From a virus, in UHGV virus genome UHGV-1366919: 64,000 nt of DNA; one strand, 5' to 3'. The notes beneath the pieces were generated by a model that saw nothing but the letters and a program-made list of their open reading frames with translations, searched no databases and was not told where the DNA came from. Made by a program: the position numbers and the translations under genes. Positions 12,071 to 58,891 of this stretch are shown piece by piece; position 1 is the stretch's first letter; each line of letters begins with the position of its first letter.

Positions 12071-14484
12071 TGACTAAAAAATATTATTCTACTAATGAAT
12101 ATTTTCTAATTGATCCGATTACAAAAGAACAAATACCTTATGAAGGCTATGTTCTTGTAGAAAATAATATTCCTTATACATTCGATGATAAAAAAGAATT
12201 AGTCATAGGTAATAATTATACAACAAAGATTAATTTATCTAATGATTTCTTTGATAGATTGTTAGATGTTGATCTTAAATTGCCTTATAATTTAGCTGAT
12301 TGTACTTTTGCAGCTAACGATTTCCTTAAAGCATCTGTTATTAATAAAATTATTAATAATTTAGAAGCAAATAACACCTATATCTTTAAAAATTGTCTTA
12401 TTGCTCAAAATGACTTGCCTTTAAGCGAAAAAATCCCAGTTTTATCTCCCCATAGACCATTTGCTTCTGAAGATAAAACTGAATTTGGCCCGGTAGACGG
12501 ATGGTTTTATTCCAACATATCTTATAGTACTCCCCAAAATATTTGGAATAAATTAGATTGGCCTGATACTGTTGAGGGTTATAATTGGGGAACTGAAGAT
12601 ATTATTAATAGTATTGTTGTTCCAACTAATAAATTTACTGATAAGAAAGATGCCGACGGAAACCCAATGAAACTATATGCTGTTTTTATTGGAAGATCTA
12701 CTTCTATTCAGCTGATGAACCTTTACTTATTTCCTTATGATGAATTACAGCAAAGTTCAGATCCTTTATTAAATGAAGGAGACCATGCTGAAGAATTAAA
12801 TCAACGAATGTTTGAAGAAATCTCTTCAATTAATAATCAAAATATTAGTGGTTCTAATGTCAATAATTTGAATATCTTTACATTTTCTAAAATTGATCCA
12901 AATAACATTGACTCAGCTTCATTTAAAAATATTTCTGGAATAGCTTTAGATGGAAATTACTTGTATGTAATTGATAATCAGTTAAATGGTCTTTTTAAAT
13001 ATGATATTTCCAAATGTTTATCTGATCGAGGAGCTGCAACAAATAGAATAATGCTTGTTGACCAAATTCAAGGCTTTGGAGATTTAAATCAGCCTTATCG
13101 ATTTAATAATCCACAATCTATTGCGGCATTTGATAATACAATCACTGTCTTCGATAAAGGAAATAATGTAATCAAAGTTCTCGATAACTTCTTCAACCAT
13201 AAATTTACCATTCGTTCAGGCGGATTTATTCGTCAAAATACAAGAACAGTGTCAATTTGCCCTTATGAATTTATTCTTAATGAAGAAACTATAGAAAAAG
13301 GTTCAATTTGGGTAATTACTGAAGCTGCAGATAAAATTATTATTAATATTTTCTCTAATAAAGGAGAATACTTGGGTGATTATCAAGTTCTTTATCTTGA
13401 ACTACTTAAAACTTACTGGTATAATCCTGAAGATGGACAACCTTCTTCAGATGAGCCAATCTATAATCAAGAAATCGTTAAAAAAATTGATTTCTCATAT
13501 AATAATTCAAATTATTTCTATATTGTTACTAATAAACGAATTGTTAAATTTCAGCTGTCTAAATTAACTTATCCGATTGGAATTATTTCTTATTATTACC
13601 GTTCAATTACTCTTGACGATTTAGTTTGGGAAAATGTTTACATGCCCTGGGAAAATGTTCAAGACTTAGGGAATAATTTAATTCCTTGGGATTATGATCG
13701 TTCTACAGAATTATCCGCTTATCCTCAAAATGTTTGTTTTTCCATAACAGGAACTCCTGAATTAAATGAAGATGTTATTTTTAATATCATTGATAATAGA
13801 AGTTATTATGGACAAGGAAAGTTGCAAAGAGTAGATAATTACACAGACAATAAACTTCTTTATTATGATAAGAATAGAGACTATACCTACCTTAAAATAA
13901 ATCTGGATGGCAGGGTTAACCCACCAGTTTTAGTGAATACAGGTGATATTGTAGATGAATACCGTCCTTCTGCTCAAAATACCCCGGAAAAAGTTGAAGG
14001 TAAAACATTTGTTATTAAAGAAGAGGAAGTTATTTCTAAGCTCCATAAGAATGTTATCCTTTTCTTTAAAGAACCGAATATTTTAAAGTCTTCTTTATTA
14101 AAATCTGATATTAATGTTTATTCTGAAGAAGAATTAAGCTTTAAAGATAATCAAGAATACTATAATGTCCTTACATTTAATAAAATTCTTTATAAACTTT
14201 TCTTTAACTTATCAGAAATTAAGAAATATATCTTCGGAACATTTGTTGGAGGTTATAGTATTGACGGGTTGATGACTTATGACCATGTTAAGCCTGATTC
14301 ATCTTTTCAGGAATTAGGTTCTGATAAAGAAAATTTCTTCATGGGAGAGAATGAGTTAACATCAATTATCCTTAATAGATGCTTTACCTCAATCTATAAT
14401 ACTCAAGTAAATATCATCAAGAAAATGCAGACTAGTTTTATTAGTACGCTTAACTATAACATTAATTCTTACCGAATCATCTAA
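12070..14484 (+). CDS. Tail fibre/baseplate structural protein with beta-propeller-like repeats
   Basis: An 804 aa ORF joined to the upstream gene by TAATG. It has repeated segments resembling NHL/beta-propeller blades (ISGIALDGNYLYVIDNQLNGLFKYDIS and PQSIAAFDNTITVFDKGNNVIKVLD). Confidence 0.4.
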   Translation: MTKKYYSTNEYFLIDPITKEQIPYEGYVLVENNIPYTFDDKKELVIGNNYTTKINLSNDFFDRLLDVDLKLPYNLADCTFAANDFLKASVINKIINNLEANNTYIFKNCLIAQNDLPLSEKIPVLSPHRPFASEDKTEFGPVDGWFYSNISYSTPQNIWNKLDWPDTVEGYNWGTEDIINSIVVPTNKFTDKKDADGNPMKLYAVFIGRSTSIQLMNLYLFPYDELQQSSDPLLNEGDHAEELNQRMFEEISSINNQNISGSNVNNLNIFTFSKIDPNNIDSASFKNISGIALDGNYLYVIDNQLNGLFKYDISKCLSDRGAATNRIMLVDQIQGFGDLNQPYRFNNPQSIAAFDNTITVFDKGNNVIKVLDNFFNHKFTIRSGGFIRQNTRTVSICPYEFILNEETIEKGSIWVITEAADKIIINIFSNKGEYLGDYQVLYLELLKTYWYNPEDGQPSSDEPIYNQEIVKKIDFSYNNSNYFYIVTNKRIVKFQLSKLTYPIGIISYYYRSITLDDLVWENVYMPWENVQDLGNNLIPWDYDRSTELSAYPQNVCFSITGTPELNEDVIFNIIDNRSYYGQGKLQRVDNYTDNKLLYYDKNRDYTYLKINLDGRVNPPVLVNTGDIVDEYRPSAQNTPEKVEGKTFVIKEEEVISKLHKNVILFFKEPNILKSSLLKSDINVYSEEELSFKDNQEYYNVLTFNKILYKLFFNLSEIKKYIFGTFVGGYSIDGLMTYDHVKPDSSFQELGSDKENFFMGENELTSIILNRCFTSIYNTQVNIIKKMQTSFISTLNYNINSYRII

Positions 14485-16124
14485 TGGCTCAACAATTTTC
14501 ATCTCTTATTAAATTTCGTCGTGGTTTAAAAGAACAGCGATTAAAAACTTCTTTCCAAGAAGGCGAACCTGTTTATGAAACAGATACAAAACGTTTATTC
14601 ATTGGAGTAGGAGATAATAATGAAGCTTCTGTTGGTCCTGAAACAGTCGGTGGTATTATTACATCTAATTTAACTTTTATTGGGCCTGCTTCCAGTGATC
14701 CTTCTCCTGATACTGAGCCGCGGTCTTATTCCGGAGACTTAATGTATGCCAATAATAAGCTTTGGAGAATGGGAGACTCTAATTGGGAAGATATTTCTCC
14801 TAAAGTAGATGGGATTACTTTAGCATATAATGCAAATAATGAACTTCAGGTTCTTTCCGGAGCATTTTCTGTTACTGCCGGGAATGGTATCTCTATTACC
14901 TCGGGAAATACTGTCAATATTAAGAATTCTCCTCAAAATATTCTTCAAATTGTTAATGGTGAATTAACAATTCCTCAAGGAAGTATAACTGCTGATTATT
15001 TTTCTACTGAAACTTTTAGTTCTGACTATTTCACAATTATTGGATCTCTTATCCAAATTAATTTAGATCCTAATTATTTTTCTACGACTGGAAATATTAA
15101 AATTACTAAAGTTCCAGCTGGTGAAAAGAATGATACATTAACAACTGTTGATAATAAACAAGTCGGTACTGTAAATGCTGTCATTACCAATCGTTTAGGA
15201 GAAAGTTCCGGCGGTATTACTCTTGATTCTAATTTAAATCTTCAAATTGATCCTCAAGTAACAGTCATTAATGATGAAACTAATCAAATCACAGGGTTAA
15301 AACCTGGTATTGGTGATGTTTTAGCAGTGAATGATTCCACCTCTAAAGCCTATAATGGATCTATCTCTGATTATTTTGATGAAGATATTAAATGGACTGG
15401 TCATGAAAGAACTGAAATAAGTCTTTTTGAAGAAGACCGGTTAAATGCACCCAATCCGATGACCGTTTTTTCTGGCGGCATGATTTTAATGGATATGGGA
15501 ACTACAAAAACCGGAAAAGGATATAAGCGGTATGCCGTCCCGGTTTTTGAATTACCGGAACCACCTGAAATTTATCATATTGAATTGGGAAGTGGCAATA
15601 CTCCAGGAAGTATTATCGGTGATAACCTTGGAGGAATTCGAGTATGGACCATAGAATCAAATACCAAGCCCGTAGAAAATATAGTAGCAGGCAGTAGTAT
15701 TGATTTACTGCATGGGACAAATAGGTTAGAATTAACTTCACCTATTTCTATTCCTCCAGATGGACAAGTTATTGCTAAAAATTATATTGGTACACTTAAT
15801 TTAGCGGATTATACCGCCAATAATCCAATTATTCGCCAGGTAACTTATGAAGGCTCAGGAACTCCTGTCACCAGTATTTCAATTGATATATTCAATGTTA
15901 ATTCTACTAAAGCCAATTTTACAAAGGTAGAATATGCTTTAGTTTCAGCTCCTGAAACAAATATTAATATTCCAACATTTGATGTACAAGAGAATTCAGA
16001 ATATCCTGGAATTAATAGTTTTGTTAATGTATCAACTTGGCCTTCCGGAGCTCCTAACTGGGAAGATATTTCTTCTGTTACTGTAACTTACAGTGGAACA
16101 GTTATCAAATATACTATTCGCTAA
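14484..16124 (+). CDS. Tail fibre protein (conserved N-terminal fibre motif)
   Basis: A 546 aa ORF. The N-terminus (SLIKFRRGLKEQRLKTSFQEGEPVYETDTKRLFIGVGDN) matches the widespread phage tail-fibre N-terminal signature (RRG...L.EGE...DT..L.IGDG). The body is rich in T/S/G/N, as is typical of fibres. Confidence 0.55.
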   Translation: MAQQFSSLIKFRRGLKEQRLKTSFQEGEPVYETDTKRLFIGVGDNNEASVGPETVGGIITSNLTFIGPASSDPSPDTEPRSYSGDLMYANNKLWRMGDSNWEDISPKVDGITLAYNANNELQVLSGAFSVTAGNGISITSGNTVNIKNSPQNILQIVNGELTIPQGSITADYFSTETFSSDYFTIIGSLIQINLDPNYFSTTGNIKITKVPAGEKNDTLTTVDNKQVGTVNAVITNRLGESSGGITLDSNLNLQIDPQVTVINDETNQITGLKPGIGDVLAVNDSTSKAYNGSISDYFDEDIKWTGHERTEISLFEEDRLNAPNPMTVFSGGMILMDMGTTKTGKGYKRYAVPVFELPEPPEIYHIELGSGNTPGSIIGDNLGGIRVWTIESNTKPVENIVAGSSIDLLHGTNRLELTSPISIPPDGQVIAKNYIGTLNLADYTANNPIIRQVTYEGSGTPVTSISIDIFNVNSTKANFTKVEYALVSAPETNINIPTFDVQENSEYPGINSFVNVSTWPSGAPNWEDISSVTVTYSGTVIKYTIR

Positions 16125-16984
16125 TGTATAATCCCCTAAAATTACAATCCCCGGTAATTTTACCTCCGGAATCGATAAGTCAAAATTGGATTTCTAAAGA
16201 AAATTTTGACTTAAAGGAAAACCTTACATTTTCATTTAAACTTAAATCTAGTAATACTTCAGATAAAGAATTGGGATTTTCTATTTTTCTTGTTAATTCT
16301 TCTAATACCGAATCTTTTGGAGCCAGCACAATTAGGTCTGGCTTGACCGATTATTCTACAAAAGGAGAAATTGGAGAAGGATTTAATAAAAATAATGAAA
16401 AATTATCCTTAAGATATAATAATATTCAATATGATTTTCTTTTGGACCATGTTTATCCTTATTCAATAAATGGTTTGGCTTCTAATCAAAAACCATTTAA
16501 TACAGAAGGATTTCAAAATAATAATATTTTTAGTATTTTATTTGATTCCACCAAAAAATTTTATAAAAACCAGCTTGATTTTTATAAAAATGTTTATTTT
16601 GATGAGGTACAGGTTAAAGATATTGTTACGGATCAAATTGTAGATCCTTCTACTTATAATTGTCCTATCTTTATTCAAGCTCTGCAAGATTTATATATAG
16701 CCGAGTTTAAAACAGATCAAAATTTTGATATACTAAATTTAAATTCTGTAACAATTCGATTTTCTTTTGAAAATTATGGTAAATTGTTCAGAATGGATGT
16801 TCTTGAAGCTAATGGTATAGAATATAAAAATGTATGTTTAAAATATTTTGACCTTAATATGAGGCAATATCGTAATCTTAAGCTCGGATATGGAATTGCA
16901 AGTCCAATAATGACTTATAATACTGAAAATATTGCTGATTTTACTATTGATACTTTCCATATCCAAGGTAAATTGAGAGAGTAA
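16124..16984 (+). CDS. Hypothetical structural protein (tail fibre-associated)
   Basis: A 286 aa ORF that is the last gene of the + strand structural run, with a TAATG junction to the upstream gene. No motif was recognised. Confidence 0.35.
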   Translation: MYNPLKLQSPVILPPESISQNWISKENFDLKENLTFSFKLKSSNTSDKELGFSIFLVNSSNTESFGASTIRSGLTDYSTKGEIGEGFNKNNEKLSLRYNNIQYDFLLDHVYPYSINGLASNQKPFNTEGFQNNNIFSILFDSTKKFYKNQLDFYKNVYFDEVQVKDIVTDQIVDPSTYNCPIFIQALQDLYIAEFKTDQNFDILNLNSVTIRFSFENYGKLFRMDVLEANGIEYKNVCLKYFDLNMRQYRNLKLGYGIASPIMTYNTENIADFTIDTFHIQGKLRE

Positions 16985-17027
16985 AGGTACATATACTATT
17001 CCTGCTCATACTCCTCTTGATATAGAG
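16984..17027. repeat. Left arm of a perfect ~42-44 bp inverted repeat; partner lies inside the tail-fibre gene at 17645-17687
   Basis: GGTACATATACTATTCCTGCTCATACTCCTCTTGATATAGAG on the + strand is the exact reverse complement of 17645-17687. It encodes GTYTIPAHTPLDIE in the + sense. Confidence 0.85.
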
Positions 17028-17222
17028 GACCATTAGACTAATCCATACAATAGTAAACTTATAATTGATAGAATGTCGGGGACTTTTTTCTGTTTCATCT
17101 ATCAAGCTAATCCTAAAGCAATCGGATGTTTTCAACTTGTTAATACTTTTAACGAAACAGGCCATAAAAGATATAACGAAGCATTACAGTATGCAACCTA
17201 TAAATTAAACTTTAGTGGCTAA
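17028..17222 (+). pseudogene. Degenerate alternative tail-fibre C-terminal cassette (collar-region homolog), interrupted by an in-frame TAG
   Basis: Continuing in frame from the repeat, the + strand reads DH*TNPYNSKLIIDRMSGTFFCFIYQANPKAIGCFQLVNTFNETGHKRYNEALQYATYKLNFSG*. This aligns with the minus-strand fibre C-terminus DPQTNPYVLSSLSGEGG...SQHRDNHWAFANVQYELNLSNL. The TAG at 17034-17036 sits exactly where the intact gene has CAA (Gln). Confidence 0.5.
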
Positions 17223-17311
17223 ATAAATCAAAGTAATATGACTCCATGAGAAACTAGATCTTATTGCATATCTCTTTCTTATTTGATTAAAATAACTTTA
17301 AATTTAAAAAA

Positions 17312-17334
17312 GCGGTGAGAACGTTCTCACCGCT
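17312..17334. terminator. Bidirectional intrinsic terminator between convergent genes
   Basis: Perfect hairpin GCGGTGAGAAC/GTTCTCACCGC, flanked by an A-run (17305-17311) and a T-run (17335-17339). It lies between the + gene ending at 16984 and the minus gene ending at 17338. Confidence 0.8.
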
Positions 17335-17337
17335 TTT

Positions 17338-19521
17338 TTATTTAATTTTAATAAGATAGGTTAAAGATATGTTATAAGGTCTAGTTTCTTTGGGGGCAAT
17401 AGGTCCTATTAGGTTACTTAGGTTTAATTCATATTGAACATTAGCAAAAGCCCAATGGTTATCTCTATGTTGTGATAAAAAGTTCGCTTCACTTAGATAA
17501 GTTTGAGAAAAAGCACCAGTTCCACCGACATATAATGGATAACGCTGTCCCCAATTTTGAGAACGAACACAAGTTTTAAAAGTACTTTTGGTTCCTCCTT
17601 CTCCTGAAAGGGAACTTAAGACATATGGATTAGTTTGAGGATCTTCTATATCAAGAGGAGTATGAGCAGGAATAGTATATGTACCTTCACTTGTAATAGT
17701 AGAAGATGTAGTGGAAGCACCTCGAATAAATCTATTTCTTAAGTCTGGCAAATTAAATTGTCCGCCTCCCCCAATTACTGTTAAATGTGAAGTAACTGGA
17801 TGAGCCGTAGTATTAAAAGTAATTATAGCTAATCCTTGGCTTAATCGTAAAAATGGAATTCGCCATGGATTAGAATCAAACTCTAACCACCACTTAGACG
17901 GTACATGGATGTTATAATATCCATCATTTTGAATAGTATAAGTATTTTGCTCATTAATGGTAGCTAACAGTGTACTATTTGTATAGATAGTAACAGGCAA
18001 TGGTGTTCTTATGCCGTTCAATACAATACCAAGGCCTTGAGCAGTAATTACTGTTCCCTTCTTCAAATATAAAGACGGTTCATAATCATAAGCAGATTCG
18101 CCGCTTCTATTAATATTAAAGGGGGCAATATTTGTTGTTAATATTCCTTCAAGAACCAATGGTATATCGTTATAAGGCAAACTAGTTCCATCCAATACAA
18201 GGTAAAAATGCCTTTTAACACCTTCATTATCTGGATTCCAAGATTGCCAAACATCTAAATTAATTGATGTAATAGTATTAAAATTAAAAGTATATTGACC
18301 GCTTACAAATTGAGCTGTGTTAGTAACTTCTTCCGGACAATATAAAATATAATTAGCATAGCCTTCAGAAAGTTCTACATATGTCCTAGCATTAGAACTA
18401 TATTTGGCATCTATAGTACATTCCATTTCAGGAACTGTTACATTTATTTTTGGTAATTGCTGAAATGTATTATTACCAGTAGCGGGAATCCATAAACAAT
18501 AAATTCCATCCTCGGGAATAATATAAGATCTGTTATCAACAGTAGAAATTAAAGGGCTACCGTCAACTCCAAAAGTTGATAAATTTAATTTTTCTTTATT
18601 ATAGATATAAGCTTCGGATGCCCCGGCATTTCCAGCTAAAGTATATCGGGCTCCCTGAATTTGAACAACTGTGTTAGCGGGCAAATAGGCATATTCTGCG
18701 TGGGCAGCCTGATTTGGACTTTGCTCATAATTAATAGTTCTACCAGTTTGCCGCCAACTAATTTTTACAGATGGATTTTCAAATGTATCAGTAGTATTAA
18801 ATTCAATATTACTAAATTGGAGTTCATTTTTAACTAGTTCAAAATCTAAATCTCCTTGAGCCTGTAAAGAATTTATTTCTAATTTGGTCAAAGTAGTAAT
18901 ATTATTTTCATGAAATAAAGATGCTGCAATAATAGGAAGGCTTAGCCTTAATCTTTTATAAGATAATCTACTTGTACCGACTACCATTCGGTACAAATCA
19001 GGGAAATTATCAAAATTATATTCTTGCCCAGTTAATGAATGCCGATTTTGGCCATCGGCAAAATCATAATAATCCCTGAATCGCTGAGGAAGCAAATTAA
19101 GATCTTTTTGGGCAATTGCAACCGGAATAACAGTGCCCACTGGAACAGTTTGCTCCATAATTTGATTATCGGTAACAAACTGTTTAATAATTTCAATTAA
19201 ATCCTGATGCTCATAATTTCCGGCATTATCACCGATGAGAATATTATTTTTAGCCGGAGCAACAGTAGGAACATTAGTTTGAGTACCAAATGTAATCTTA
19301 TCTCTTAATTGAGTTTGGCTGACAATTTCTTTTTGAACTTCAATATGTTCAGTACCAATAGACAATGCAGAATTATTACCCATTGAATCAGCAACAGGAA
19401 CGGGTGTTAATCCAATACCAGTATCTGAACCGTCATCGGCCGGAGAAACACGTAAAATTCCTCGGAAAGATTTTGAAATTGGCTTTTTTGCTACGTCTCT
19501 ATTGTTTTGTTCTGTTGCCAT
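17338..19521 (-). CDS. Tail fibre protein with a C-terminal collar (gp12-like receptor-binding) domain
   Basis: A 727 aa ORF. The C-terminus (...NLPDLRNRFIRGAS...GTYTIPAHTPLDIED...) matches the phage tail-collar domain signature (LPDLRGRF.RG). The rest is T/S/G-rich fibre-like sequence. It contains the right arm of the inverted repeat. Confidence 0.7.
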   Translation of the reverse strand: MATEQNNRDVAKKPISKSFRGILRVSPADDGSDTGIGLTPVPVADSMGNNSALSIGTEHIEVQKEIVSQTQLRDKITFGTQTNVPTVAPAKNNILIGDNAGNYEHQDLIEIIKQFVTDNQIMEQTVPVGTVIPVAIAQKDLNLLPQRFRDYYDFADGQNRHSLTGQEYNFDNFPDLYRMVVGTSRLSYKRLRLSLPIIAASLFHENNITTLTKLEINSLQAQGDLDFELVKNELQFSNIEFNTTDTFENPSVKISWRQTGRTINYEQSPNQAAHAEYAYLPANTVVQIQGARYTLAGNAGASEAYIYNKEKLNLSTFGVDGSPLISTVDNRSYIIPEDGIYCLWIPATGNNTFQQLPKINVTVPEMECTIDAKYSSNARTYVELSEGYANYILYCPEEVTNTAQFVSGQYTFNFNTITSINLDVWQSWNPDNEGVKRHFYLVLDGTSLPYNDIPLVLEGILTTNIAPFNINRSGESAYDYEPSLYLKKGTVITAQGLGIVLNGIRTPLPVTIYTNSTLLATINEQNTYTIQNDGYYNIHVPSKWWLEFDSNPWRIPFLRLSQGLAIITFNTTAHPVTSHLTVIGGGGQFNLPDLRNRFIRGASTTSSTITSEGTYTIPAHTPLDIEDPQTNPYVLSSLSGEGGTKSTFKTCVRSQNWGQRYPLYVGGTGAFSQTYLSEANFLSQHRDNHWAFANVQYELNLSNLIGPIAPKETRPYNISLTYLIKIK
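17645..17687. repeat. Right arm of the perfect inverted repeat (inside the fibre coding sequence)
   Basis: Exact reverse complement of 16984-17027, read directly from the sequence. Confidence 0.85.
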
Positions 19522-26302: not shown

Positions 26303-27253
26303 TTAGTTAAGATCAGCGGTTTGTCCATTCAAATAAGCTTCAAGCTCATTCAAGTCAACTTCAGTTGGTTCAGTTGGTTCAGTCGATTCAGAAGAACTAA
26401 TTGTCTCAGTCTTGACTGGTTCTTCTCGAGTAAAAGAAGGAATCGGATCCATGCCAACAACAGAAGTAGGAGCAGAAATAGGAGCTACTTTAGCCGTAGT
26501 ATCTGGATTAGCCCCCAAGAAAGTTGTCATAAACAACTTCTCAAGTTCAGAAACTTCCATATTTCGTTCAATAGCAGTCAAATCATGTGCTTGCTGAAGA
26601 ATCGTATCAATATCAGCCTCACTCAAACCAAGATCACGCTTACGACGAACAAAAGTGGAAGATTTATAAGAAGTAAAATCACCTTGAGGTTCAGCATTAA
26701 TATTAAGATTAATACCATCGGCAGAAAGGTCAAAAATTGCCTTCCTCATATCCTCAACATCAAATTCTTCAACAAATTTTTCCTTCTTCTTAGGATCATC
26801 AGAACAAGCTTCTTCAATAATGTTCTGAAGTTGACGTCCGGCTTGAAGAATCTTAACCTTACCATTATTTTCAGGATTTACTGGATCATTTACAACATAA
26901 ACATTATAATACCAGGATTCCTTATAGTTAAGGCGCTTATCAACATCCTTAAACAAGGCTTCATTACCAGAATTCTTTACCTTAAAATAATATTCAGTAA
27001 TAGGGCAAGCTTCGCCATAGGTGCGAGGAGAAAGAACATAAGTCCAGCGACCATCCTTAATAGACCTCCAAGAATACTGGAAAAAATGGAAAATAGACTT
27101 ATGATAGCCAGCACGTCCTTCCTTTACATAAGGAAGAAGACGAACAAGATATTCATTACCAGCTTTAAAAGAAAGCTTTTCAGTATAAAGGCCTTTTTTA
27201 GTATTAGAAGCAAAAAGTTCAGCCGAGGATTGGAAAAAATCATTTAGATTCAT
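26303..27253 (-). CDS. Single-stranded DNA-binding protein (T4 gp32-like)
   Basis: A 316 aa ORF. The segment YYNVYVVNDPVNPENNGKVKILQAGRQL aligns with T4 gp32 [29 protein letters not shown]. It also has an acidic C-terminal tail, as gp32 does. Confidence 0.8.
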   Translation of the reverse strand: MNLNDFFQSSAELFASNTKKGLYTEKLSFKAGNEYLVRLLPYVKEGRAGYHKSIFHFFQYSWRSIKDGRWTYVLSPRTYGEACPITEYYFKVKNSGNEALFKDVDKRLNYKESWYYNVYVVNDPVNPENNGKVKILQAGRQLQNIIEEACSDDPKKKEKFVEEFDVEDMRKAIFDLSADGINLNINAEPQGDFTSYKSSTFVRRKRDLGLSEADIDTILQQAHDLTAIERNMEVSELEKLFMTTFLGANPDTTAKVAPISAPTSVVGMDPIPSFTREEPVKTETISSSESTEPTEPTEVDLNELEAYLNGQTADLN

Positions 27254-32116: not shown

Positions 32117-32133
32117 TTAATAAAGCTAAATTG

Positions 32134-32166
32134 AAAAACCCGAAGGATTAAATCCTTCGGGTTTTT
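32134..32166. terminator. Bidirectional intrinsic terminator (copy 1 of a repeated hairpin)
   Basis: AAAAACCCGAAGGAT-TAA-ATCCTTCGGGTTTTT between convergent genes. A nearly identical hairpin recurs at 51183-51214. Confidence 0.85.
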
Positions 32167-32982: not shown

Positions 32983-34095
32983 TTATTCTTCAATTAATTC
33001 TTCTTCAGTTTCTTCCTCTGGAATATCATGGGCTGAATAACCCCATGCTTCAGGTAAGCGTCGTTCAATTTCAGGATAAATTTTTTCATCCCAAAGCTCT
33101 TTCTTCTTTCGGAAAGCTTTAGCATAACCAAGAGATGTTCCGTCATAAAGATCATAAACACTTCCCCGACGTTCGATAACACCAAGGTTGATTGCTAATT
33201 CAAGTGTTCCATATTCTTCATCCAAACCAGTCTTCCAGCTAAGGTACATAGAACCCTCAATCATTGGACGAATGAAACGATTCTTAACACACATACAACG
33301 CATTTCAATACCAGCAATTCCCTTACCAACTTCATCCTTTTCACCAGAATCTTTTTCTTTAAGATTCTTTTTAGCAAGCTGGACAACTACAGAAGGAAGA
33401 TAACGGCAAGCTTTGCCGCCATTCATGCACTTAACCAAATCTGGGTACATTTCATTTGGATTATCATAAATATGGTTAGTAACCACAAATGTAGTTTTGG
33501 TTAAGCCCCCGTATGTTGTACAAGTTTTCAATAAAGATTTAATTGCCTTTGCAATTGTACCCATATCTGCGGAAGTAGAATCTTTATCCATTCTCTTTGT
33601 TTCCATTTCAGAAAGCATATTTGCAAGAGAATCAATAACTACAAGAAACTTTCCTTCCATGTGTGTTTCTTCAATCTTTTGAAGAAGAGCAAAAATTGCA
33701 TTTCGAACTTGCTCAATGGATTTAGCTGGGAAATACTTAATCTTCTTTGGATCGGCTCCAAGAGATTCAACCATTCTAGCATCAATAGCATTTTCAGTAT
33801 CGAATACTACAGTATACATTCCCATTTTCTGAGCATTTCCCACAATTTTTTGAGCGATAAAGCTCTTACCAGATGCGCTTTCCCCGGCTAAAAGGGTTAC
33901 GCGCCCTTTTGGAATTCCTCCATATAATGATCCAGAAATTACTGCGTTAAGCATCTTGCTTCCTGTATCAATCCACTCATCTACATTAGAAAGAGTGGAT
34001 TGATCTAAGAAAGAAGAATAAGGACTATAATCATCCAATACATCAAAAACTTTTGATGCAAGTTTATTAATATCAACTTTTTCTTCTTCTGCCAT
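32983..34095 (-). CDS. uvsX: RecA-like recombinase UvsX
   Basis: A 370 aa ORF. GRVTLLAGESASGKSFIAQ and VVFDTENA, plus the general architecture, align with T4 UvsX (GLLILAGPSKSFKS...LFYDSEFG). Confidence 0.85.
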   Translation of the reverse strand: MAEEEKVDINKLASKVFDVLDDYSPYSSFLDQSTLSNVDEWIDTGSKMLNAVISGSLYGGIPKGRVTLLAGESASGKSFIAQKIVGNAQKMGMYTVVFDTENAIDARMVESLGADPKKIKYFPAKSIEQVRNAIFALLQKIEETHMEGKFLVVIDSLANMLSEMETKRMDKDSTSADMGTIAKAIKSLLKTCTTYGGLTKTTFVVTNHIYDNPNEMYPDLVKCMNGGKACRYLPSVVVQLAKKNLKEKDSGEKDEVGKGIAGIEMRCMCVKNRFIRPMIEGSMYLSWKTGLDEEYGTLELAINLGVIERRGSVYDLYDGTSLGYAKAFRKKKELWDEKIYPEIERRLPEAWGYSAHDIPEEETEEELIEE

Positions 34096-38492: not shown

Positions 38493-40301
38493 TTAAATGG
38501 TGATTCTTTTTGTAATACCATTATGCTTGTCTAATTGAATAATTTCACCGATTCCAGCTTTAAAGAAATCAGGCTTATGAGAAATGAGATAAATCGCCTG
38601 GTCTTCTTTCTGGGCAAATTCTTCTAAAATATTACAAACAATTTCCGAGTTAGTTTTATCCAAAGAAGAATCAAGAATTTCATCATAAAAAGAAACGTTG
38701 TAACTTACGGAACCTTGCAATTTAAGAATATCTCTAAATGCCCATATACAAGCTAAGTCTAGCATTTTAGATTCAGCACCGGAAAGATTTCCATAACTTA
38801 CCATAATTCCTCTTTTATTGAGAATTTCTTCTTCAAATACTTCATTAAATGATAATGAATATTGAGAATTCTGCTTAGTGAGATAATACTTGATTCTAAA
38901 ATTCAGTAAATCAAGAAGCTTTTTAATAATATAAGCCCTGATACCTTCTTCAGAAAGAATAAATCTTGCAATTTCAAATTTAGCTAAAGAAGCATTAATG
39001 TCTTTAATAACTTCTTCTTTTTTGGCTTTTTCTTTTTCGGCTTTTTCAATTAAATCTTTGAATATATCTTTTTCTTCAGATTCCTTCTCATGAACCTGGT
39101 ATTGTTTTAAAAGATCTTCTTTTAATTTTAAAGTATCAGTCTCAGCTTTAATGGCTGACTTATTATTGCTAATTTCCCATTCTAAATCCCTTAACTGGTT
39201 TAACTCTTTTTGCTTCTTTTGCTGAATATCCTGAGCTAGGGCAATAAGTTTGTTTAATTTTTCTTTTTCTTCTTCTTTCTTTAGAAGTTTATCTTGAAGT
39301 TCTTTAATAGAATGTTTAATTTCAATTTGATCTTTATCAGTAAATGGGCGGTTACATTCGGCACAAACTGGACCAAACTTTAATAAGGTATCAATTTTTT
39401 CAGATATAGTCTTTTTTTCATTCTTAATAGCTCCTAAATCAGCAGCTATTCTTATTTGGGCTTCCCGAGTCTTTCCTATATCATTTTTAATAGCATTTAA
39501 AATACTCTCGGAAACCTTTATTTTAGAAAGTCTAGCTTCCTCTTCCTTTAATTTAGAAATCTTTAAGGAAATTTTATGAATATCTTTTTCAATAATTTGT
39601 TTCTCAAGTTCTTTCTTTTGTTTTTGATTGGCAATTCTCTCCAACTCTTTCCTTTGTTTAGAAGTATAATCAAAAATATTAGAATTAATTTGTTCTACAA
39701 GTTTAGATTCTATGTCAAGTTCTCTTTTAGAGATATTAATATCATCCTTAACAAGCTTAAACATTTGAGTTACTACATCAAGATTAAAAAGACTTTCAAT
39801 AAACTTCTTTTTATCAGTCTTGCCCTGGCTCATAAATGGAATTGTATTATTTGCCTGCATGGCAATACAATTCTTAAAAACCTCTTGAGATGTAGAAAGA
39901 ACCTCTAAAATATAAGTTGTCGTATTAGGAATACTATCTCTTGTTTTATCCCTCCCGTCCTTGAATACCTTTAAAGAAGACGGATTTAATTCTCGAATAA
40001 TCTTAAAATTATTATTTCCCTTGGTCGAATTACAGTTAAATTCAAGAATAACTTGAGTTGTTCCTTTAACCAAATTATTAGGAATATTCCTAATTGCTAA
40101 ATCTTTTAGAGTTTTTCCAAAAATAGCAAAAGAAAATGCCGCAACGATAGAACTTTTGCCAACACCATTTTTAGTGCCCGGTACATCAGAATTTGTACCA
40201 GTGATGAAATTAACACCTGGTTTAAATTCAATTACAACAGACTCTTCACCAATCGATAAAAAGTTTTTAATTTGAATTTTTTTAAATGTTATAAACTTCA
40301 T
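38493..40301 (-). CDS. Rad50/SbcC-like recombination ATPase (T4 gp46-like)
   Basis: A 602 aa ORF. It has an N-terminal Walker A (GTNGVGKSSI), a long coiled coil with a CxxC zinc hook (GPVCAECNRP), and C-terminal signature motifs (LSGAES) and Walker B/D-loop (AIYLISH). Confidence 0.85.
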   Translation of the reverse strand: MKFITFKKIQIKNFLSIGEESVVIEFKPGVNFITGTNSDVPGTKNGVGKSSIVAAFSFAIFGKTLKDLAIRNIPNNLVKGTTQVILEFNCNSTKGNNNFKIIRELNPSSLKVFKDGRDKTRDSIPNTTTYILEVLSTSQEVFKNCIAMQANNTIPFMSQGKTDKKKFIESLFNLDVVTQMFKLVKDDINISKRELDIESKLVEQINSNIFDYTSKQRKELERIANQKQKKELEKQIIEKDIHKISLKISKLKEEEARLSKIKVSESILNAIKNDIGKTREAQIRIAADLGAIKNEKKTISEKIDTLLKFGPVCAECNRPFTDKDQIEIKHSIKELQDKLLKKEEEKEKLNKLIALAQDIQQKKQKELNQLRDLEWEISNNKSAIKAETDTLKLKEDLLKQYQVHEKESEEKDIFKDLIEKAEKEKAKKEEVIKDINASLAKFEIARFILSEEGIRAYIIKKLLDLLNFRIKYYLTKQNSQYSLSFNEVFEEEILNKRGIMVSYGNLSGAESKMLDLACIWAFRDILKLQGSVSYNVSFYDEILDSSLDKTNSEIVCNILEEFAQKEDQAIYLISHKPDFFKAGIGEIIQLDKHNGITKRITI

Positions 40302-40569
40302 TATCAGCCAACTTTTCTAAAATCTTTTTCTTATTTTTAACCTTTTGCTTATGCTTCTTTACAAATGAAAAACATTTTGAATAAAACTTACATTCATTCT
40401 TTGAACAATTACAATGAGGCCACCAATCATTTCTGCAAAATGGTAATTCTTTCCAAGAATTTTTATGAGCACCTCCATGTACTCCATCTCTTTTATCCCG
40501 GGACATTAGAAATCTCTCTATATTTCTTTTGCAAATATTGCAATACTTCTTTTGGATTAGGAACATCAA
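40282..40569 (-). CDS. Questionable small Cys-rich ORF in the SbcD-SbcC gap
   Basis: A 95 aa ORF that overlaps both neighbours in other frames. It has CxxC...H...C.C pairs and could be a zinc-ribbon micro-protein or spurious. Confidence 0.2.
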   Translation of the reverse strand: MMFLIQKKYCNICKRNIERFLMSRDKRDGVHGGAHKNSWKELPFCRNDWWPHCNCSKNECKFYSKCFSFVKKHKQKVKNKKKILEKLADNEVYNI

Positions 40570-41530
40570 GCAAACCGATATATTCTTTAATTGCTTCCAT
40601 TAATTCTAAAGCAACAAAATCAGTTTTTGTATCAATAGCAGAAGAAAATCCTTTATTATCCCAGTCAATATCGCATTCCAGAGGCTGACAAGATGACAAT
40701 AATTTAATAAGTTCATCCATGTCATCTACAGTAATATTCTTATCAATCGCCAGTCGAAGATAATTATTAACAATTTCTTTACCAATCTTAGAAGGTTCTT
40801 TTCTAATTAGGGAAGAAAGAGTCATCTTAATAAATTTAGGAGAAATCTCATTATAATGATAAGAATATTTTCCTGTATCTACATCAAGAATAATAAAACC
40901 TTTCTTATCTCCCGCCTCTCCATAGTTCATCTGAAAAGGATTACCTACATAAACAATAGATCCAGATGAATATTTTCTAAACTGGGCTTTATGAAAATGC
41001 CCAGAAAAAATACTATTAAATTTCTTCAATAGATCAGATAATTTAAAACCTTCTTCACAAAGATGCTCAGATGAATTCATTTGAAACGTATTAATCTCAA
41101 AATGACCGAACAAATAATCAGAAGATTCAATTTCTGGATTTAACGGATTAAATCCCCATGGACAAAGAGTAATACTTTTATCCCCGATATTCAATCTGGC
41201 AGGCTTATCATAATATTTGATATTATTATATCCTTGAAAAATAGAAGTAGAAGATACTTCAGTGCTTCCGGAAAAATACAAATCGTGATTACCTGGAAAT
41301 ATATGAATAGAAAAATCCTCCAATAACCGGAGGATTTTTGCTGTTGAATTCAAAGTATAAACATCTACCGAATTTCTGTTATGAAACCAGTCTCCAAGAA
41401 AAAATACATCTTTAATATTTTTCTCTTTGAGAGTTTTAACCATATCTTGGATAAATTCAACTGCAACACTATGCCAATGTTGATTATCTCCTTTAATTCC
41501 AAGATGTAAATCAGAAAAAATTGCTATCAT
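40493..41530 (-). CDS. Mre11/SbcD-like nuclease (T4 gp47-like)
   Basis: A 345 aa ORF with calcineurin-like phosphoesterase motifs (DLHLG, GDWFH, GNHD). Confidence 0.85.
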   Translation of the reverse strand: MIAIFSDLHLGIKGDNQHWHSVAVEFIQDMVKTLKEKNIKDVFFLGDWFHNRNSVDVYTLNSTAKILRLLEDFSIHIFPGNHDLYFSGSTEVSSTSIFQGYNNIKYYDKPARLNIGDKSITLCPWGFNPLNPEIESSDYLFGHFEINTFQMNSSEHLCEEGFKLSDLLKKFNSIFSGHFHKAQFRKYSSGSIVYVGNPFQMNYGEAGDKKGFIILDVDTGKYSYHYNEISPKFIKMTLSSLIRKEPSKIGKEIVNNYLRLAIDKNITVDDMDELIKLLSSCQPLECDIDWDNKGFSSAIDTKTDFVALELMEAIKEYIGLLDVPNPKEVLQYLQKKYREISNVPG

Positions 41531-41595: not shown

Positions 41596-42777
41596 TCATT
41601 CCGCAATAAAAACCTTATTTCCTACATCCCATATCCGGTCCCAACCGTTTGCACTCATATTTTCATATTCAGATAATTTAAGATCAAAATAATTCAAAAG
41701 ACGCGGTAATTTATGTTTTTGAAATTGAACTCGGCTTTTTCGTTGAAGAGAATTATCTTTAAAATAAAAGTAATTCGGGTCAGCATCATGAATCTCCTTA
41801 AATCCAATTTGTCGATAAAGCTGACCTTGGGACCATCGACGATCGGCATATGTAATTACACTGCCTGCATTATTTCTACGAAAATATTCAAACAACTTGG
41901 AAGCTCCTCCAATTACTGTAAAATTAGCAACTGTACAATAGCGAATCAGTTCATAATCATATTTCTTGTTAAACCTGGATTTATTAAAAGTCATTACAGC
42001 CACCATGCGATTCTTATAAAATAATCCCAGATTAATGGAAGAAGCGTAAGTTCCTTGAATATGATATTTTAAAATAAATGGCTTAACTTGCTGATAAGTC
42101 AATTCGCGAACTTTACATTTACGAGCATAGATCTTTCCGGAAGTAATTCCAAGAAGATGACGAATACGGGCCTTAACAATCTGCGGCTTCAATTCCCATT
42201 CATCTTCGAATACATGAATTAACCGTACTCCTTTTTCTTCACACTTATTTGTTTCAGTCAAATGGTACCGTTTAGTAAATCCATTTCGTTCACAATGTCC
42301 TGAAAGGGAATCAAACTCAAAAGCAATCTTCTTATCTGGAATATGAATAGCAATAGTATAAGGAGCTGCTAACTCTTTATCATTCTCAATAATCCGGCCA
42401 TTATAAACACTTTTAATATAATTTATAAAATTATTATAAGACTCAGGGTTAGATACCGGCTCAACAATAGGAGCTGGTTCTTTTTTAGAAGACGTGGAAA
42501 CTTTTTTAATTTTTTCCTTCTTTTGCTTTGGTTCTTTTGGAGCTTTGGACACTTTAGGCTCTGTATTTTTCCTTAATGCTTCAATAGCACATTGCCTGCA
42601 TCCATACTTGGAACGTATAAAATGCTGGGTTAAACAAAAGAAAGATCCATGATCCTTGCAAATAATTTCAACCGGTTTCCTGTTACTTTGATAATCAACT
42701 TTAGAGTAATCAAATTGATCTCCAAATTTTTCAAGGCAGAATTTAATAAAAGCTTCCTTACGTTGTTCTTTTTTCAT
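41596..42777 (-). CDS. Homing-endonuclease-like protein (N-terminal zinc-ribbon repeat unit, C-terminal Vsr/DUF559-like nuclease-fold domain)
   Basis: A 393 aa ORF. The N-terminal unit (FDYSKVDY...IICKDHGSF...H..YGCRQC) is homologous to the repeats of the next gene. The C-terminal segment (IAFEFDSLSGH...GVRLIHVFEDEW) resembles the PD-(D/E)XK Vsr/DUF559 family. It is a paralog of 42799-44109. Confidence 0.5.
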   Translation of the reverse strand: MKKEQRKEAFIKFCLEKFGDQFDYSKVDYQSNRKPVEIICKDHGSFFCLTQHFIRSKYGCRQCAIEALRKNTEPKVSKAPKEPKQKKEKIKKVSTSSKKEPAPIVEPVSNPESYNNFINYIKSVYNGRIIENDKELAAPYTIAIHIPDKKIAFEFDSLSGHCERNGFTKRYHLTETNKCEEKGVRLIHVFEDEWELKPQIVKARIRHLLGITSGKIYARKCKVRELTYQQVKPFILKYHIQGTYASSINLGLFYKNRMVAVMTFNKSRFNKKYDYELIRYCTVANFTVIGGASKLFEYFRRNNAGSVITYADRRWSQGQLYRQIGFKEIHDADPNYFYFKDNSLQRKSRVQFQKHKLPRLLNYFDLKLSEYENMSANGWDRIWDVGNKVFIAE

Positions 42778-42798: not shown

Positions 42799-44109
42799 TC
42801 AATTTTTAAAGGTGCGCAGATTACACACTTTATTTTTAGTATGTATCTTGGTAAACAACAAATTTTCTATAGATTTTCTATTATTTTTCCAGTCTCTTTC
42901 TTCGACATTTATTAGTAGAATATTTGCTTCTTTACAACGCCTTTCCTTTTCGGCATGACAGCCAGGCTGTCTTTCTTCTTTAAGTTTATGCCAGTGAGAT
43001 CCATTATATTCAATGCCAATTCTTAATTCGGGAAGAAATATGTCAAGCTCCATTCTTCCTATTTGAGTCTTATCATTTTCAAGAACTTCTCCCGAATAAA
43101 TTGACTTAATATATGCACAAACTTCTTTTTCTCCTCTAGATGTCTGTTTAGATAAGGCACATATTGGACAACCTTGTTGAAGATACCAATGACTAGACGG
43201 TATTTGTTGAAATACTCCGTGTACAGGACATATGATATTAACCTTAGAATGTGCGTTTACATAATTTACTAAAGAATAATCATATTTTTCTCCATGAACT
43301 TTTCTAGACCTCTTAATAAATTCATCAATTGTTAACTTTTCAAAACCAAAACATTTAGGACACCCTGAGCCATTTAAATGACTATTTGGTTTTTGCCAAA
43401 AAATACCATGTTTAGGACAAATAATTGATATTTTTTTCTGAGAATGCTCATAACTTACTTGAGAATAATCATAAAGAGTACCATGAACTTTTCTTGCTTT
43501 CTGAATAAAATCTTCAGTCGTTACTAACTCTTTATTTCCACATTTTGGACAACCACACCCATTAAGATGGGAATTAGGTGTTTGCTGAAATATATGTCCA
43601 CACTTTTTACATTTAATTTTTACCTTAACTTTATTACCCTGGTAATCCACTTCAGAATAATCAAATTTATCACCGTGTACTTTACTAGCTTTTTCAATAA
43701 ATTCTTTAGTTGTAGATTTATTGTTATTAGAGCAAAAAGGACATCCAAAACCTTTCATGTGGCTTTGTGCCTGCTGTTCAAATATATGCCCGCATTTTTT
43801 ACATTTAATTTTTACTTTAAGCTTATTGCCTTGATAATCTACTTCAGAATAATCAAATTTATCGCCATGAACTTTTTGGGACTTTTCAATAAATTCTTTA
43901 GTTGTTAGCTTCTTAACACCAGCACATTCTAAACATCCGCATCCCTGGACATGGCTATAAGCTTTTTGCTGAAAAGAACCGTGAATAGGACATATTATTG
44001 TTATGACATTATGAGCTCCTGTATAAAAAGTCTCAGAATAATCATATTTGTTTCCATGAACCTCTGTACATTCTTTAATAAATTGCTCATTTGATTTTAA
44101 TTTTGCCAT
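42799..44109 (-). CDS. Homing-endonuclease-like protein with 5-6 tandem zinc-ribbon repeats and a C-terminal Vsr/DUF559-like domain
   Basis: A 436 aa ORF. It has about six copies of a ~56 aa unit (EFIxKxxKVHGDKYDYSxVxY....KVxIxCxKHGxFxQ....H..GxGCPxC). The C-terminal segment (ELDIFLPELRIGIEYNGSHWH) is nuclease-fold-like. The repeats are near-identical at the DNA level. Confidence 0.5.
   Translation of the reverse strand: MAKLKSNEQFIKECTEVHGNKYDYSETFYTGAHNVITIICPIHGSFQQKAYSHVQGCGCLECAGVKKLTTKEFIEKSQKVHGDKFDYSEVDYQGNKLKVKIKCKKCGHIFEQQAQSHMKGFGCPFCSNNNKSTTKEFIEKASKVHGDKFDYSEVDYQGNKVKVKIKCKKCGHIFQQTPNSHLNGCGCPKCGNKELVTTEDFIQKARKVHGTLYDYSQVSYEHSQKKISIICPKHGIFWQKPNSHLNGSGCPKCFGFEKLTIDEFIKRSRKVHGEKYDYSLVNYVNAHSKVNIICPVHGVFQQIPSSHWYLQQGCPICALSKQTSRGEKEVCAYIKSIYSGEVLENDKTQIGRMELDIFLPELRIGIEYNGSHWHKLKEERQPGCHAEKERRCKEANILLINVEERDWKNNRKSIENLLFTKIHTKNKVCNLRTFKN
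43290..43960. repeat. Intragenic tandem DNA repeats (~168 bp units)
   Basis: Adjacent repeat units are nearly identical at the nucleotide level (for example the two KVHGDKFDYSEVDYQGNK(L/V)KVKIKCKKCGHIF units). They produce the spurious + strand ORF 43567-43908. Confidence 0.7.
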
Positions 44110-51179: not shown

Positions 51180-51182
51180 TTA

Positions 51183-51214
51183 AAAACCCGAAGGATTTAA
51201 TCCTTCGGGTTTTT
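51183..51214. terminator. Bidirectional intrinsic terminator (copy 2 of the repeated hairpin)
   Basis: AAAAACCCGAAGGAT-TTAA-TCCTTCGGGTTTTT between convergent genes. The stem is identical to the one at 32134-32166. Confidence 0.85.
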
Positions 51215-51216
51215 CT

Positions 51217-58112: not shown

Positions 58113-58364
58113 ATGAAAAGAGATTATAACGAAAAATGTTTAGAAGCGTTGGAATTGGTCTATACAAAGTATGGAATTGATATGAATAACGCACCGGCTG
58201 AAAAGATGATTGATGCAATTACTTCTGAATTGGGTTGTTCAATAGGTTATCATATCATGTCTACTAAAGATGCGAAGCCAATTGATGAAAAAGAATTAGT
58301 ACTTAATGCTCTAGAAGATGATTATCTCAATGAAATTGGATTGAAGAATATTCTTTTAGCCTAA
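58113..58364 (+). CDS. Hypothetical small protein
   Basis: An 83 aa ORF. Confidence 0.3.
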   Translation: MKRDYNEKCLEALELVYTKYGIDMNNAPAEKMIDAITSELGCSIGYHIMSTKDAKPIDEKELVLNALEDDYLNEIGLKNILLA

Positions 58365-58891
58365 TGAAGATCTTTTACACTGGAGTTGGGAATAGAGATA
58401 CTCCTCATGAGTATCTTGAAAAGATGACAGCCCTGGCTTCTTTATTAGAAAAAGAAGGCTGTATTCTCAGAAGCGGAGGAGCGGAAGGAGCTGATACCGC
58501 TTTTGAAAATGGTGTAAGATCTCTTTACAATAAAGAGATTTATCTTCCATGGACTTTTTTCAATAATAAAGTCCATGGATATGTTACACCTTTAGATTTA
58601 ATAAATTGTATTGATGAAATTCTTAGTAGAGTTCATCCCAATTTCAGTAATCTTCGAGAAAGCACATTAAAGCTTCATCGAAGAAATGTTCTTCAGATTT
58701 TAGGGCAGGATTTAGCGACTCCTTCTCATTTTGTTTTATGTTATACCCGGGACGGAGCTGAAACTTTTACTTCTTTTGAAACTGGAGGAACTGGAACTGT
58801 TATAAGATTGGCAAATCATTATAATATACCTGTTTTTAATTTAAGAAATAAAAACTGGGCTGATCGATTTAAAGAATTTATGAAAGGCTAG
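58364..58891 (+). CDS. SLOG-superfamily Rossmann protein (DprA/Smf/YpsA-like)
   Basis: A 175 aa ORF. The pattern YTGVGNRDTP...LRSGGAEGADTAFENG...ETGGTGTVIRLANHYNIPVFNL matches the DprA/YpsA Rossmann signature. Confidence 0.45.
   Translation: MKIFYTGVGNRDTPHEYLEKMTALASLLEKEGCILRSGGAEGADTAFENGVRSLYNKEIYLPWTFFNNKVHGYVTPLDLINCIDEILSRVHPNFSNLRESTLKLHRRNVLQILGQDLATPSHFVLCYTRDGAETFTSFETGGTGTVIRLANHYNIPVFNLRNKNWADRFKEFMKG

Follow-up and report, generated by a model that had tools for sequence, protein, structure and literature searches.

Does the inverted repeat near the end of a tail-fibre gene in the virus genome UHGV-1366919 mark a switch that exchanges one fibre tip for another, and, if it does, what flips the switch? 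We address these questions for a 64,000-nucleotide stretch of that genome, referred to here as the window, in which positions are counted from the first letter. Comparison of the window with related phages indicates that the segment bounded by the repeat inverts, and that either of two intact tips can be fused in frame to the same fibre body. The window itself belongs to a common sub-lineage in which the corresponding switch is a locked, decaying relic of the one that is active in sister lineages.

An inverted repeat at the tip junction of a tail-fibre gene

The elements of the locus on which the argument depends are the following.

16980..17047, plus strand: left arm of the repeat (exact core 16984-17026), on the silent side, overlapping the stop codon of the 286-amino acid gene
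17624..17691, minus strand: right arm of the repeat (exact core 17645-17687), within the fibre gene where the constant body meets the variable tip, coding for SEGTYTIPAHTPLDIEDPQTNPY
17338..19521, minus strand: fibre gene, an open reading frame (ORF) of 727 amino acids made up of constant body, arm and expressed tip A2; putative homologue of the T4 gp12 short tail fibre and of tail collar fibres
17341..17623, minus strand: expressed tip cassette A2, a variable core followed by the conserved C-terminal strand ETRPYNISLTYLIKIK, delimited by the ORF, the alignment of relatives and the gp12 match
17048..17297, plus strand: silent alternative tip cassette B2, a pseudogene without a start codon, recognized by translation and by intact B1 orthologues in relatives, both silent and expressed
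16124..16984, plus strand: convergent gene of 286 amino acids with no family match in Pfam or PHROG, the last gene of a plus-strand structural operon, with its stop codon in the left arm

An earlier note on this DNA had described an exact inverted repeat of 42-44 bp with one arm in intergenic DNA and the other inside the fibre gene. The coordinates hold and the exact repeat is 43 nt long, with 16984-17026 on the plus strand being the reverse complement of 17645-17687. The core sequence, AAGGTACATATACTATTCCTGCTCATACTCCTCTTGATATAGA, is present in only two copies in the window when up to three mismatches are allowed, and no chance match to it arose across 100 dinucleotide-preserving shuffles. Ungapped extension lengthens the repeat to 68 nt at 91% identity (16980-17047 and 17624-17691), and this is the longest inverted repeat within the window.

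In the 727-amino acid ORF, the right arm is read as (S)EGTYTIPAHTPLDIE(DPQTNPY). The exact core of the left arm starts on the final base of the TAA stop codon (16982-16984) of the 286-amino acid ORF, and the left copy, read in the frame of the arm, gives ESKGTYTIPAHTPLDIEDH, a stop, and then TNPYNSKLIID; past the arm core it reads DIEDH, a stop, and TNPYNSKLIIDRMSGTFF. The inner third of the left arm is mutated (GAGGACCATTAG), and the mutated part includes a TAG at 17034-17036. The 43-nt identity is what the window retains of the arms.

Residues 587-727 of the fibre, its approximately 140 C-terminal residues, match phrog_523, annotated as "tail collar fiber protein", with an E value of 8e-07. 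A phmmer search against the Protein Data Bank (PDB) matches the fibre to the T4 gp12 structures 1ocy and 5iv5 (E values of 0.002-0.005) through two collinear motifs, LPDLRNRFIRG aligned with LPDMRGLFVRG, and ETRPYNISLTYLIKIK aligned with ETRPWNISLNYIIKVK at the C-terminal end. The Pfam family S_tail_recep_bd gives an E value of 0.0027 and 18.4 bits, which lies under its curated cutoff of 23.8. An AlphaFold2 (AF2) monomer model built from a shallow alignment of 18 sequences has a mean predicted local distance difference test (pLDDT) score of 39.6, and of less than 50 at residues 562-727, and is unusable. From these matches, we regard the fibre as a gp12-related, short-tail-fibre-like protein with a putatively receptor-binding tip.

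Tips and segment orientation among related phages

A protein search retrieved 134 fibres that have a common body of approximately 610 amino acids and that continue, after DPQTNPY, with one of two C-termini. Tip A, which begins VLSSLSGEG, is carried by 98 of the 134 proteins (726-731 amino acids in total), and tip B, which begins NSKLIIDGMSGTFFC, is carried by the other 36 (712-719 amino acids in total). The variable cores of A (77 amino acids) and B (67 amino acids) have no detectable similarity (BLASTP E = 18), and both tips end in ETRPYNISLxYLIKxK. Within tip B, hypervariable positions (for example at L003 7909-8157) fall in NTS[N/G/D]G[T/S/A]GHRK[Y/H][N/D]G[S/P]S and FS[S/G]Q..QN[N/D], and the remainder is invariant; the pattern suggests that these positions are likely to be receptor-contacting loops.

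DNA containing the whole structure was available for 20 distinct loci, designated by L numbers, of which 10 carry a segment of type A1/B1 and 10, including the window, a segment of type A2/B2. In every one of the 20, the unexpressed tip is an inverted cassette without a start codon that begins with the arm and lies flush with the stop of the 286-amino acid gene, and the position of this gene is kept in all relatives. The homology of the arms in these relatives extends over 69 nt, from AGTGAAGG to CCATAC, and ends exactly at the point where the tips diverge; it codes for SEGTYTIPAHxPLxIEDPQTNPY, and the inverted copy is located approximately 580 nt away.

The A1/B1 loci have the same flanking genes and occur in both orientations. 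Six of the 10 express A and keep B silent (L001, L007, L008, L012, L016 and L032), and four express B and keep A silent (L003, L009, L013 and L027). The closest pair, L016 and L003, comes from two samples and has flanks that are 100.000% identical over 4908 and 2701 nt, between which a 719-nt segment that includes the arms is inverted with a single mismatch. Contigs assembled by Megahit at k=119 tell the same story: L017 (body, arm and tip A) and L005/L020 (body, arm and tip B) agree at every position for 4908 nt, as far as the inner edge of the arm, and differ beyond it. Since 119-mers are longer than the 69-nt arm, both junctions are spanned and the orientation is not the choice of the assembler.

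The fibre proteins extend this comparison. Most bodies that carry tip B have a counterpart carrying tip A that differs at 0-5 amino acids, and the difference is zero for the pairs P0091/P0023 and P0093/P0041. Fitch parsimony on the tree of fibre bodies requires at least 19 changes between A and B across 134 tree tips, a count that also includes any exchange of tips between genomes. Orientation is thus scattered over the fibre-body phylogeny, and the flips appear to be recurrent.

The window tells a different part of the story. Its A2/B2 segment is approximately 78% identical in DNA sequence to the A1/B1 type, and the comparison with L027 is the most instructive, with flanks that are 98.8% identical exactly to the inner ends of both arms and an intervening segment that is 77.6% identical. 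Therefore, whole segments move between lineages with the arms as boundaries. Within the A2/B2 group, B2 is a pseudogene with at least one stop in 10 of 10 loci, A2 is expressed in all 10, and no B2-type tip is found among the 36 expressed B tips. L024 has a single stop in B2 (CGA to TGA, between MTP and ETR) and L025 has two, while the window, L031 and L033-L036 have three; B2 of L030 and L037 carries an additional frameshift.

The three in-frame stops on the silent side of the window are the TAG at 17034-17036, in the arm, a TAA at 17220-17222 and a TGA at 17247-17249, the last of which is common to the window, L024, L025, L031 and L033-L036. Cassette B of the window lineage acquired a CGA to TGA nonsense mutation in an ancestor and two further C to T stops later. 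Inversion in the window genome would end the fibre after DIEDH, and therefore this genome is locked on tip A2.

These comparisons bear on most of what the earlier note had proposed. The reading of the locus as an invertible or cassette-switching host-range locus is borne out by relatives that have both orientations, each of which fuses a different intact tip in frame. The comparison with related genomes that the note had called for finds the second arm in all 20 loci and an intact alternative cassette in 10 of 10 A1/B1 loci. The alignment of the TAG with a Gln codon of the intact fibre gene is correct, and relatives have CAG at this position. The alternative cassette is decayed, as had been stated, with three stops in the window and decay in all 10 loci of the sub-lineage, and the description of it as a divergent homolog of the fibre C-terminus applies to the arm and to the last approximately 16 residues (ETRPYNISLxYLIKxK), which are common to both tips, but not to the dissimilar cores. 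From the identity of the arms the note had implied ongoing gene conversion or inversion; a 43-nt identity by itself is no proof of ongoing inversion in the window genome. For that genome the alternative reading offered in the note, a relic, is the one that applies, with a decayed B2 and a fixed orientation in all 10 loci.

What flips the segment

The centre of the segment contributes two further features to the layout.

17305..17340, no strand assigned: perfect palindrome of 36 nt in the middle of the invertible segment, common to both tail-to-tail cassettes; with T-runs on both strands, it resembles the hairpin of a bidirectional terminator
17249..17389, no strand assigned: inner inverted repeat (17249-17302 and 17336-17389, 76%), formed by the two conserved C-terminal coding ends, which point towards each other from either side of the terminator

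Tips A and B are two tail-to-tail partial ORFs between the arms, split by the palindromic bidirectional terminator. The comparison of relatives shows that recombination between the arms inverts the segment, so that the body is fused in frame to the other tip and the first tip becomes a silent cassette without a start codon. The transcript of the 286-amino acid gene would continue through the silent cassette up to the terminator. The proposed catalyst is the phage's own UvsX, gp32, gp46/47-like and UvsW-like machinery, which would act on approximately 69 nt of uninterrupted homology during recombination-dependent replication, such that each burst would yield a minority of flipped genomes. The candidates encoded in the window include the following.

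32983..34095, minus strand: UvsX/RecA-like recombinase (Pfam RecA, E 1e-17), the candidate trans-acting enzyme for arm-to-arm recombination
38493..41530, minus strand: gp46/gp47-like recombination nuclease pair (SMC_N/AAA_23 ATPase and Metallophos), candidate machinery
26303..27253, minus strand: gp32-like single-strand DNA-binding protein (Pfam gp32, E 2e-14), candidate machinery

The aligned loci show reciprocal inversion with breakpoints inside the arms and in-frame splicing of either tip; the enzyme is what we infer. On balance, we lean towards a two-state switch that is flipped by homologous recombination of the phage between the two arms. In T4, replication is recombination-dependent and approximately 50 bp of homology is enough for efficient recombination, which makes the 69-nt arms a plausible substrate. 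The 69 nt of coding homology is close to the minimal efficient substrate of T4-type recombination.

The arms themselves have features that would be expected of sequences that recombine with one another. Among codons for the same residue, those that differ synonymously number 16 of 179 in the arms and 46 of 117 in the equally conserved C-terminal ends (Fisher 6e-10), a contrast that is drawn from non-independent genomes; the synonymous sites of the inner inverted repeat are not homogenized. The two arms of a genome are identical at 69 of 69 positions in 5 of 13 compared loci, with haplotypes that differ between genomes, and are mosaic in the rest. A block of four single-nucleotide polymorphisms (SNPs), GAAGATCCTCAAACTAATCCATAT, is found at the inner end of the arm only beside A, other A cassettes having the B-type block, and this pattern looks like a conversion tract that reaches the edge of homology.

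Dedicated enzymes were searched for on the phage side. No serine or tyrosine recombinase (Resolvase, Recombinase or Phage_integrase) was detected among the 38 largest ORFs of the window, and none was detected in the small genes beside the fibre (precomputed Pfam assignments in relatives) or within 10 kb past each end of the window (in relatives), a screen that covers approximately 84 kb of the approximately 200-kb phage genome. The absence of an invertase gene near the locus, which the earlier note had remarked upon, is in keeping with this screen. A motif search found no Mpi-like site in the arms, and the full-site gix/hix consensus has no match in the arms at up to eight mismatches, with the best half-site mismatched at 3 of 10 positions.

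Several observations weigh against the proposed mechanism or against the functional interpretation of the locus. The recombinase screen is confined to phage DNA, and to approximately 84 of its approximately 200 kb. Both of the crossovers that are informative, at arm positions 12-48 and 31-40, are compatible with a single fixed site. A permutation test for an excess of arm identity within genomes is not significant (p = 0.22), so that concerted evolution of the arms is not claimed on this basis; the contrast at synonymous sites is the better control, with the limit that its genomes are non-independent. The two orientations are known from contigs of separate assemblies and not from the reads of one sample. 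The homology to gp12 is based on two short motifs and the PHROG match, and a difference in receptor between tips A and B is presumed; the two tips may bind different receptors.

These points give most room to an explanation that keeps the switch and changes the enzyme, namely that a site-specific invertase encoded elsewhere in the phage genome or in the host acts on a core site within the arms; in its host version, such an enzyme is likened to the global invertases of gut Bacteroidales. To our knowledge, every characterized tail-fibre inversion system uses a dedicated recombinase (Gin, Cin, Pin, Min or Rci) whose gene adjoins the segment. Tail-fibre inversion with a dedicated recombinase has been described (PMC9881135). 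A candidate site does exist, since a dyad, TCCTCTTRATATAGAGGA (TCCTCT-N6-AGAGGA), overlaps the palindrome GAGGATCCTC at arm positions 33-55, where the informative crossovers map. This dyad is located in the window at 17012-17034 and 17637-17659 and is present in most relatives; the locked lineage of the window has an imperfect version of it in the expressed arm and has lost it from the silent arm. However, approximately 0.1 such dyads are expected by chance, and the dyad is imperfect beside cassette A in five genomes. The arms lack a gix/hix or Mpi consensus, and no recombinase is found in the window ORFs or flanks although the gene is adjacent in known systems. Furthermore, identity extends over the whole 69 nt and stops precisely where the proteins diverge, and the outer halves of the arms are homogenized too, which a fixed central crossover could not yield. 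We therefore consider a dedicated invertase unlikely, if still a serious contender.

The remaining explanations dispense with the switch, in whole or in part. If the cassette were a neutral relic of an old inverted duplication, with the A/B polymorphism arising from exchange of tips between co-infecting phages, then the decay of cassette B and the invariant orientation in the window and nine sister loci would be expected, and segments do cross lineages, as the window and L027 illustrate. Such a relic does not account for a strain found in both orientations with both cassettes swapped reciprocally (L016 and L003), for at least 19 changes on the body tree, or for silent cassettes that are intact in 10 of 10 A1/B1 loci beside synonymously homogenized arms. 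We thus regard it as improbable; it is contradicted for the family and effectively true for the window genome. It is more improbable still that the inversions are assembly artefacts, as could arise because De Bruijn graphs fail to orient a segment when the exact inverted repeat on its two sides exceeds k. Several contigs, of 6 to 204 kb, do end at or inside the arms (L010, L004/L019, L038 and L039), and the default k of SPAdes, 55, is shorter than 69 nt, but the Megahit contigs at k=119 and k=141 span the arm with body and A (L017 and L016) or body and B (L005/L020) on identical bodies, and independent assemblies supply 36 distinct proteins of B type and 98 of A type. We also considered whether contigs that end at the arms signal heterogeneity within samples and set this aside as uninformative, since any exact repeat of at least k branches the graph regardless of biology.

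The least credible explanation, to which we give next to no weight, is that translation does extend into the left cassette, whether through recoding of TAG to Gln, a phenomenon known from some gut phages, or through a +1 frameshift that would lengthen the 286-amino acid protein. The TAG does lie opposite a Gln codon, and the frame of the cassette is +1 relative to the 286-amino acid gene and starts at its stop. This explanation is contradicted by the TAA and TGA stops in addition to TAG and by the frameshift in L030 and L037, and relatives have CAG at the TAG position, no transfer RNA (tRNA) gene is found in the window, and long standard-code ORFs occur throughout. Recoding was accordingly rejected in favour of a plain CAG to TAG nonsense mutation. 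The frameshift fusion was rejected as well: GAG-TAA-A offers no slippery sequence, the 286-amino acid gene stops at TAA in some genomes and at TGA in others, and a TGA in the frame of the cassette occurs two codons upstream of the arm.

Having weighed these alternatives, we return to homologous recombination between the arms as the favoured mechanism. Beyond it, and with less assurance, we suggest that the family might represent a programmed, invertase-free inversion in a lytic T4-like phage, in which the silent tip is stored inverted, flips are UvsX-dependent and of low frequency, and the arrangement evolved independently of Mu and P1.

The phage and comparable systems

The window encodes T4-type versions of gp32, a DnaB-like helicase, RNase H, family-B DNA polymerase, primase, sliding clamp, the late sigma factor gp55, UvsX/RecA, the gp46/47-like nuclease pair, a UvsW-like helicase, the portal gp20 and gp15. 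It also contains an ORF of 175 amino acids (58364-58891, plus strand) that matches phrog_768, "DprA-like DNA recombination-mediator protein", at E 1e-53 and that may bear on recombination capacity. The portal is only approximately 27% identical to that of any cultured phage (the T4-likes), and neither the locus nor the fibre has a blastn or tblastn match among 50,697 cultured-phage records. IMG/VR holds one 42.8-kb contig of the phage. The relatives come from human gut metagenomes, with contigs of 195-205 kb, indicating a genome of approximately 200 kb, and the exact 286-amino acid protein is indexed in 1330 blocks of the assembly collection. The phage is uncultured, T4-like, apparently lytic and very prevalent in human gut metagenomes.

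Other features of this genome were noted in passing. Two genes upstream of the switch, an ORF of 546 amino acids (14484-16124, plus strand; 538 amino acids in some relatives) has an Mtd_N (major tropism determinant N-terminal) domain and is a second variable fibre-like protein. An ORF of 646 amino acids (49239-51179, plus strand) carries a C5 cytosine DNA methylase domain at its N-terminus (E 2e-23). Treble-clef zinc-finger domains (DUF723 / DUF4379) are encoded by adjacent minus-strand ORFs at 41596-42777 and 42799-44109, and just past the end of the window a relative has a third DUF723 protein (L029 5255-6178); the family may represent mobile nuclease-like genes. The orthologue (L029 10886-11203) of a 100-amino acid ORF (62164-62466, minus strand) weakly matches Pfam CRISPR_Cas2. 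At L029 1-1285, approximately 8-10 kb past the right end of the window, GTP_EFTU/PAPS_reduct (CysN/CysD-like) and APS_kinase domains are encoded, likely by auxiliary metabolic genes. A perfect 34-nt palindromic terminator-like hairpin, GAAAAACCCGAAGGATTAAATCCTTCGGGTTTTT, occurs twice, at 32133-32166 and, 19 kb further on, at 51182-51215. The palindromes at 17305-17340 and 32133-32166 lie 14.83 kb from each other, and Logan (k=31) contigs of this phage recurrently have this length; these 14.8-kb contigs are an assembly artefact that recurs because contigs break at perfect palindromes.

Fibre switching by DNA inversion is textbook knowledge for temperate phages such as Mu and P1, where it is always tied to a cognate invertase. 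The same logic is met here in a T4-like, apparently lytic, uncultured gut phage, with a gp12-type target, a minimal module of 0.6 kb and no invertase found in the screened part of the genome. The locus offers a concrete, testable case of host-range bet-hedging in the gut virome, and a natural experiment in which lineages with a live switch can be set against lineages with a dead one. It also carries a warning for assembly and annotation, in that the orientation of the segment in short-read assemblies is untrustworthy, and can be arbitrary, when k is less than 69. Two interchangeable tips with conserved splice points would provide a scaffold for engineering receptor specificity. If the mechanism does prove to be free of an invertase, it would be a notable addition to the biology of phage host range.

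The published literature that we covered, which is incomplete, contains no account of this locus and none of a gp12-type fibre that is subject to inversion. Shufflons (R64 Rci) and diversity-generating retroelements (DGRs; BPP-1 Mtd) share its purpose, as they too diversify the receptor-binding C-terminus of an adhesin. In a shufflon, multiple segments are separated by 19-bp sfx sites and the Rci gene adjoins them, whereas here the arm is found in only two copies in 64 kb, with up to three mismatches allowed, and there is no match to a tyrosine recombinase among the window ORFs that were screened. A DGR requires a reverse transcriptase and a template repeat, neither of which was seen here.

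Inversions on a larger scale have been described for an approximately 30-kb invertible region in Anabaena cyanophages (bioRxiv 10.64898/2026.02.14.705889) and for modules of the T4-like Campylobacter phages CP21 and CP220 (PMC4546147). As in our locus, the inversions take place between inverted repeats, orientation does not follow phylogeny, and no dedicated invertase has been assigned to them. Unlike our locus, they have repeats of 400-700 nt or long arrays, flip tens of kb of whole genes and do not splice coding ends.

The fibre resembles T4 gp12 (PDB 1OCY, 1H6W and 5IV5) in its collinear LPD(L/M)R..F.RG and C-terminal ETRP(Y/W)NISL.Y.IK.K motifs. It differs in that the homology is confined to the last approximately 140 residues, with an unrelated body and a gene order unlike that of T4; moreover, T4 gp12 has one fixed receptor-binding head. 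For the long tail fibres of T-even phages, Tetart et al. 1998 reportedly found that adhesin segments are swapped by recombination between conserved motifs. Here, too, short conserved coding motifs bracket hypervariable, putatively receptor-binding segments and would serve homologous recombination, the arms also bound exchange between lineages, and the enzymology is likely to be similar. The T-even swaps take place between genomes and in direct orientation, whereas here the donor lies in the same genome, inverted, and the exchange would be reversible and self-contained.

The closest parallels are the G segment of Mu (Gin/gix), the C segment of P1 and P7 (Cin), the P segment of e14 (Pin) and Min of p15B, in all of which an inverted repeat lies inside a fibre gene, at the point where the constant part gives way to the variable one. 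As in Mu G and P1 C, promoter-less alternative C-terminal cassettes lie in opposite orientation, inversion splices either one onto the constant body, and both orientations are found in natural populations, here in L016 and L003 and in the k=119 contigs of relatives. A crossover site of the gix/hix/cix type is 26 bp long and consists of two 12-bp half-sites around a 2-bp core. In contrast to Mu G and P1 C, with their 34-bp sites, our locus has arms of 69 nt of coding homology with no gix-type site, no adjoining invertase in the portion of the genome that was screened, and no cassette-specific chaperone genes (U/U') in the approximately 580 nt between the arms. It spans approximately 0.58 kb and consists of two partial ORFs placed tail to tail around one shared terminator, its carrier is T4-like and apparently lytic, and its target is a gp12-like fibre. 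Taken together, these comparisons indicate that the locus is a switch of the kind known as "gene splicing by inversion", resembling Mu G in its predicted function.

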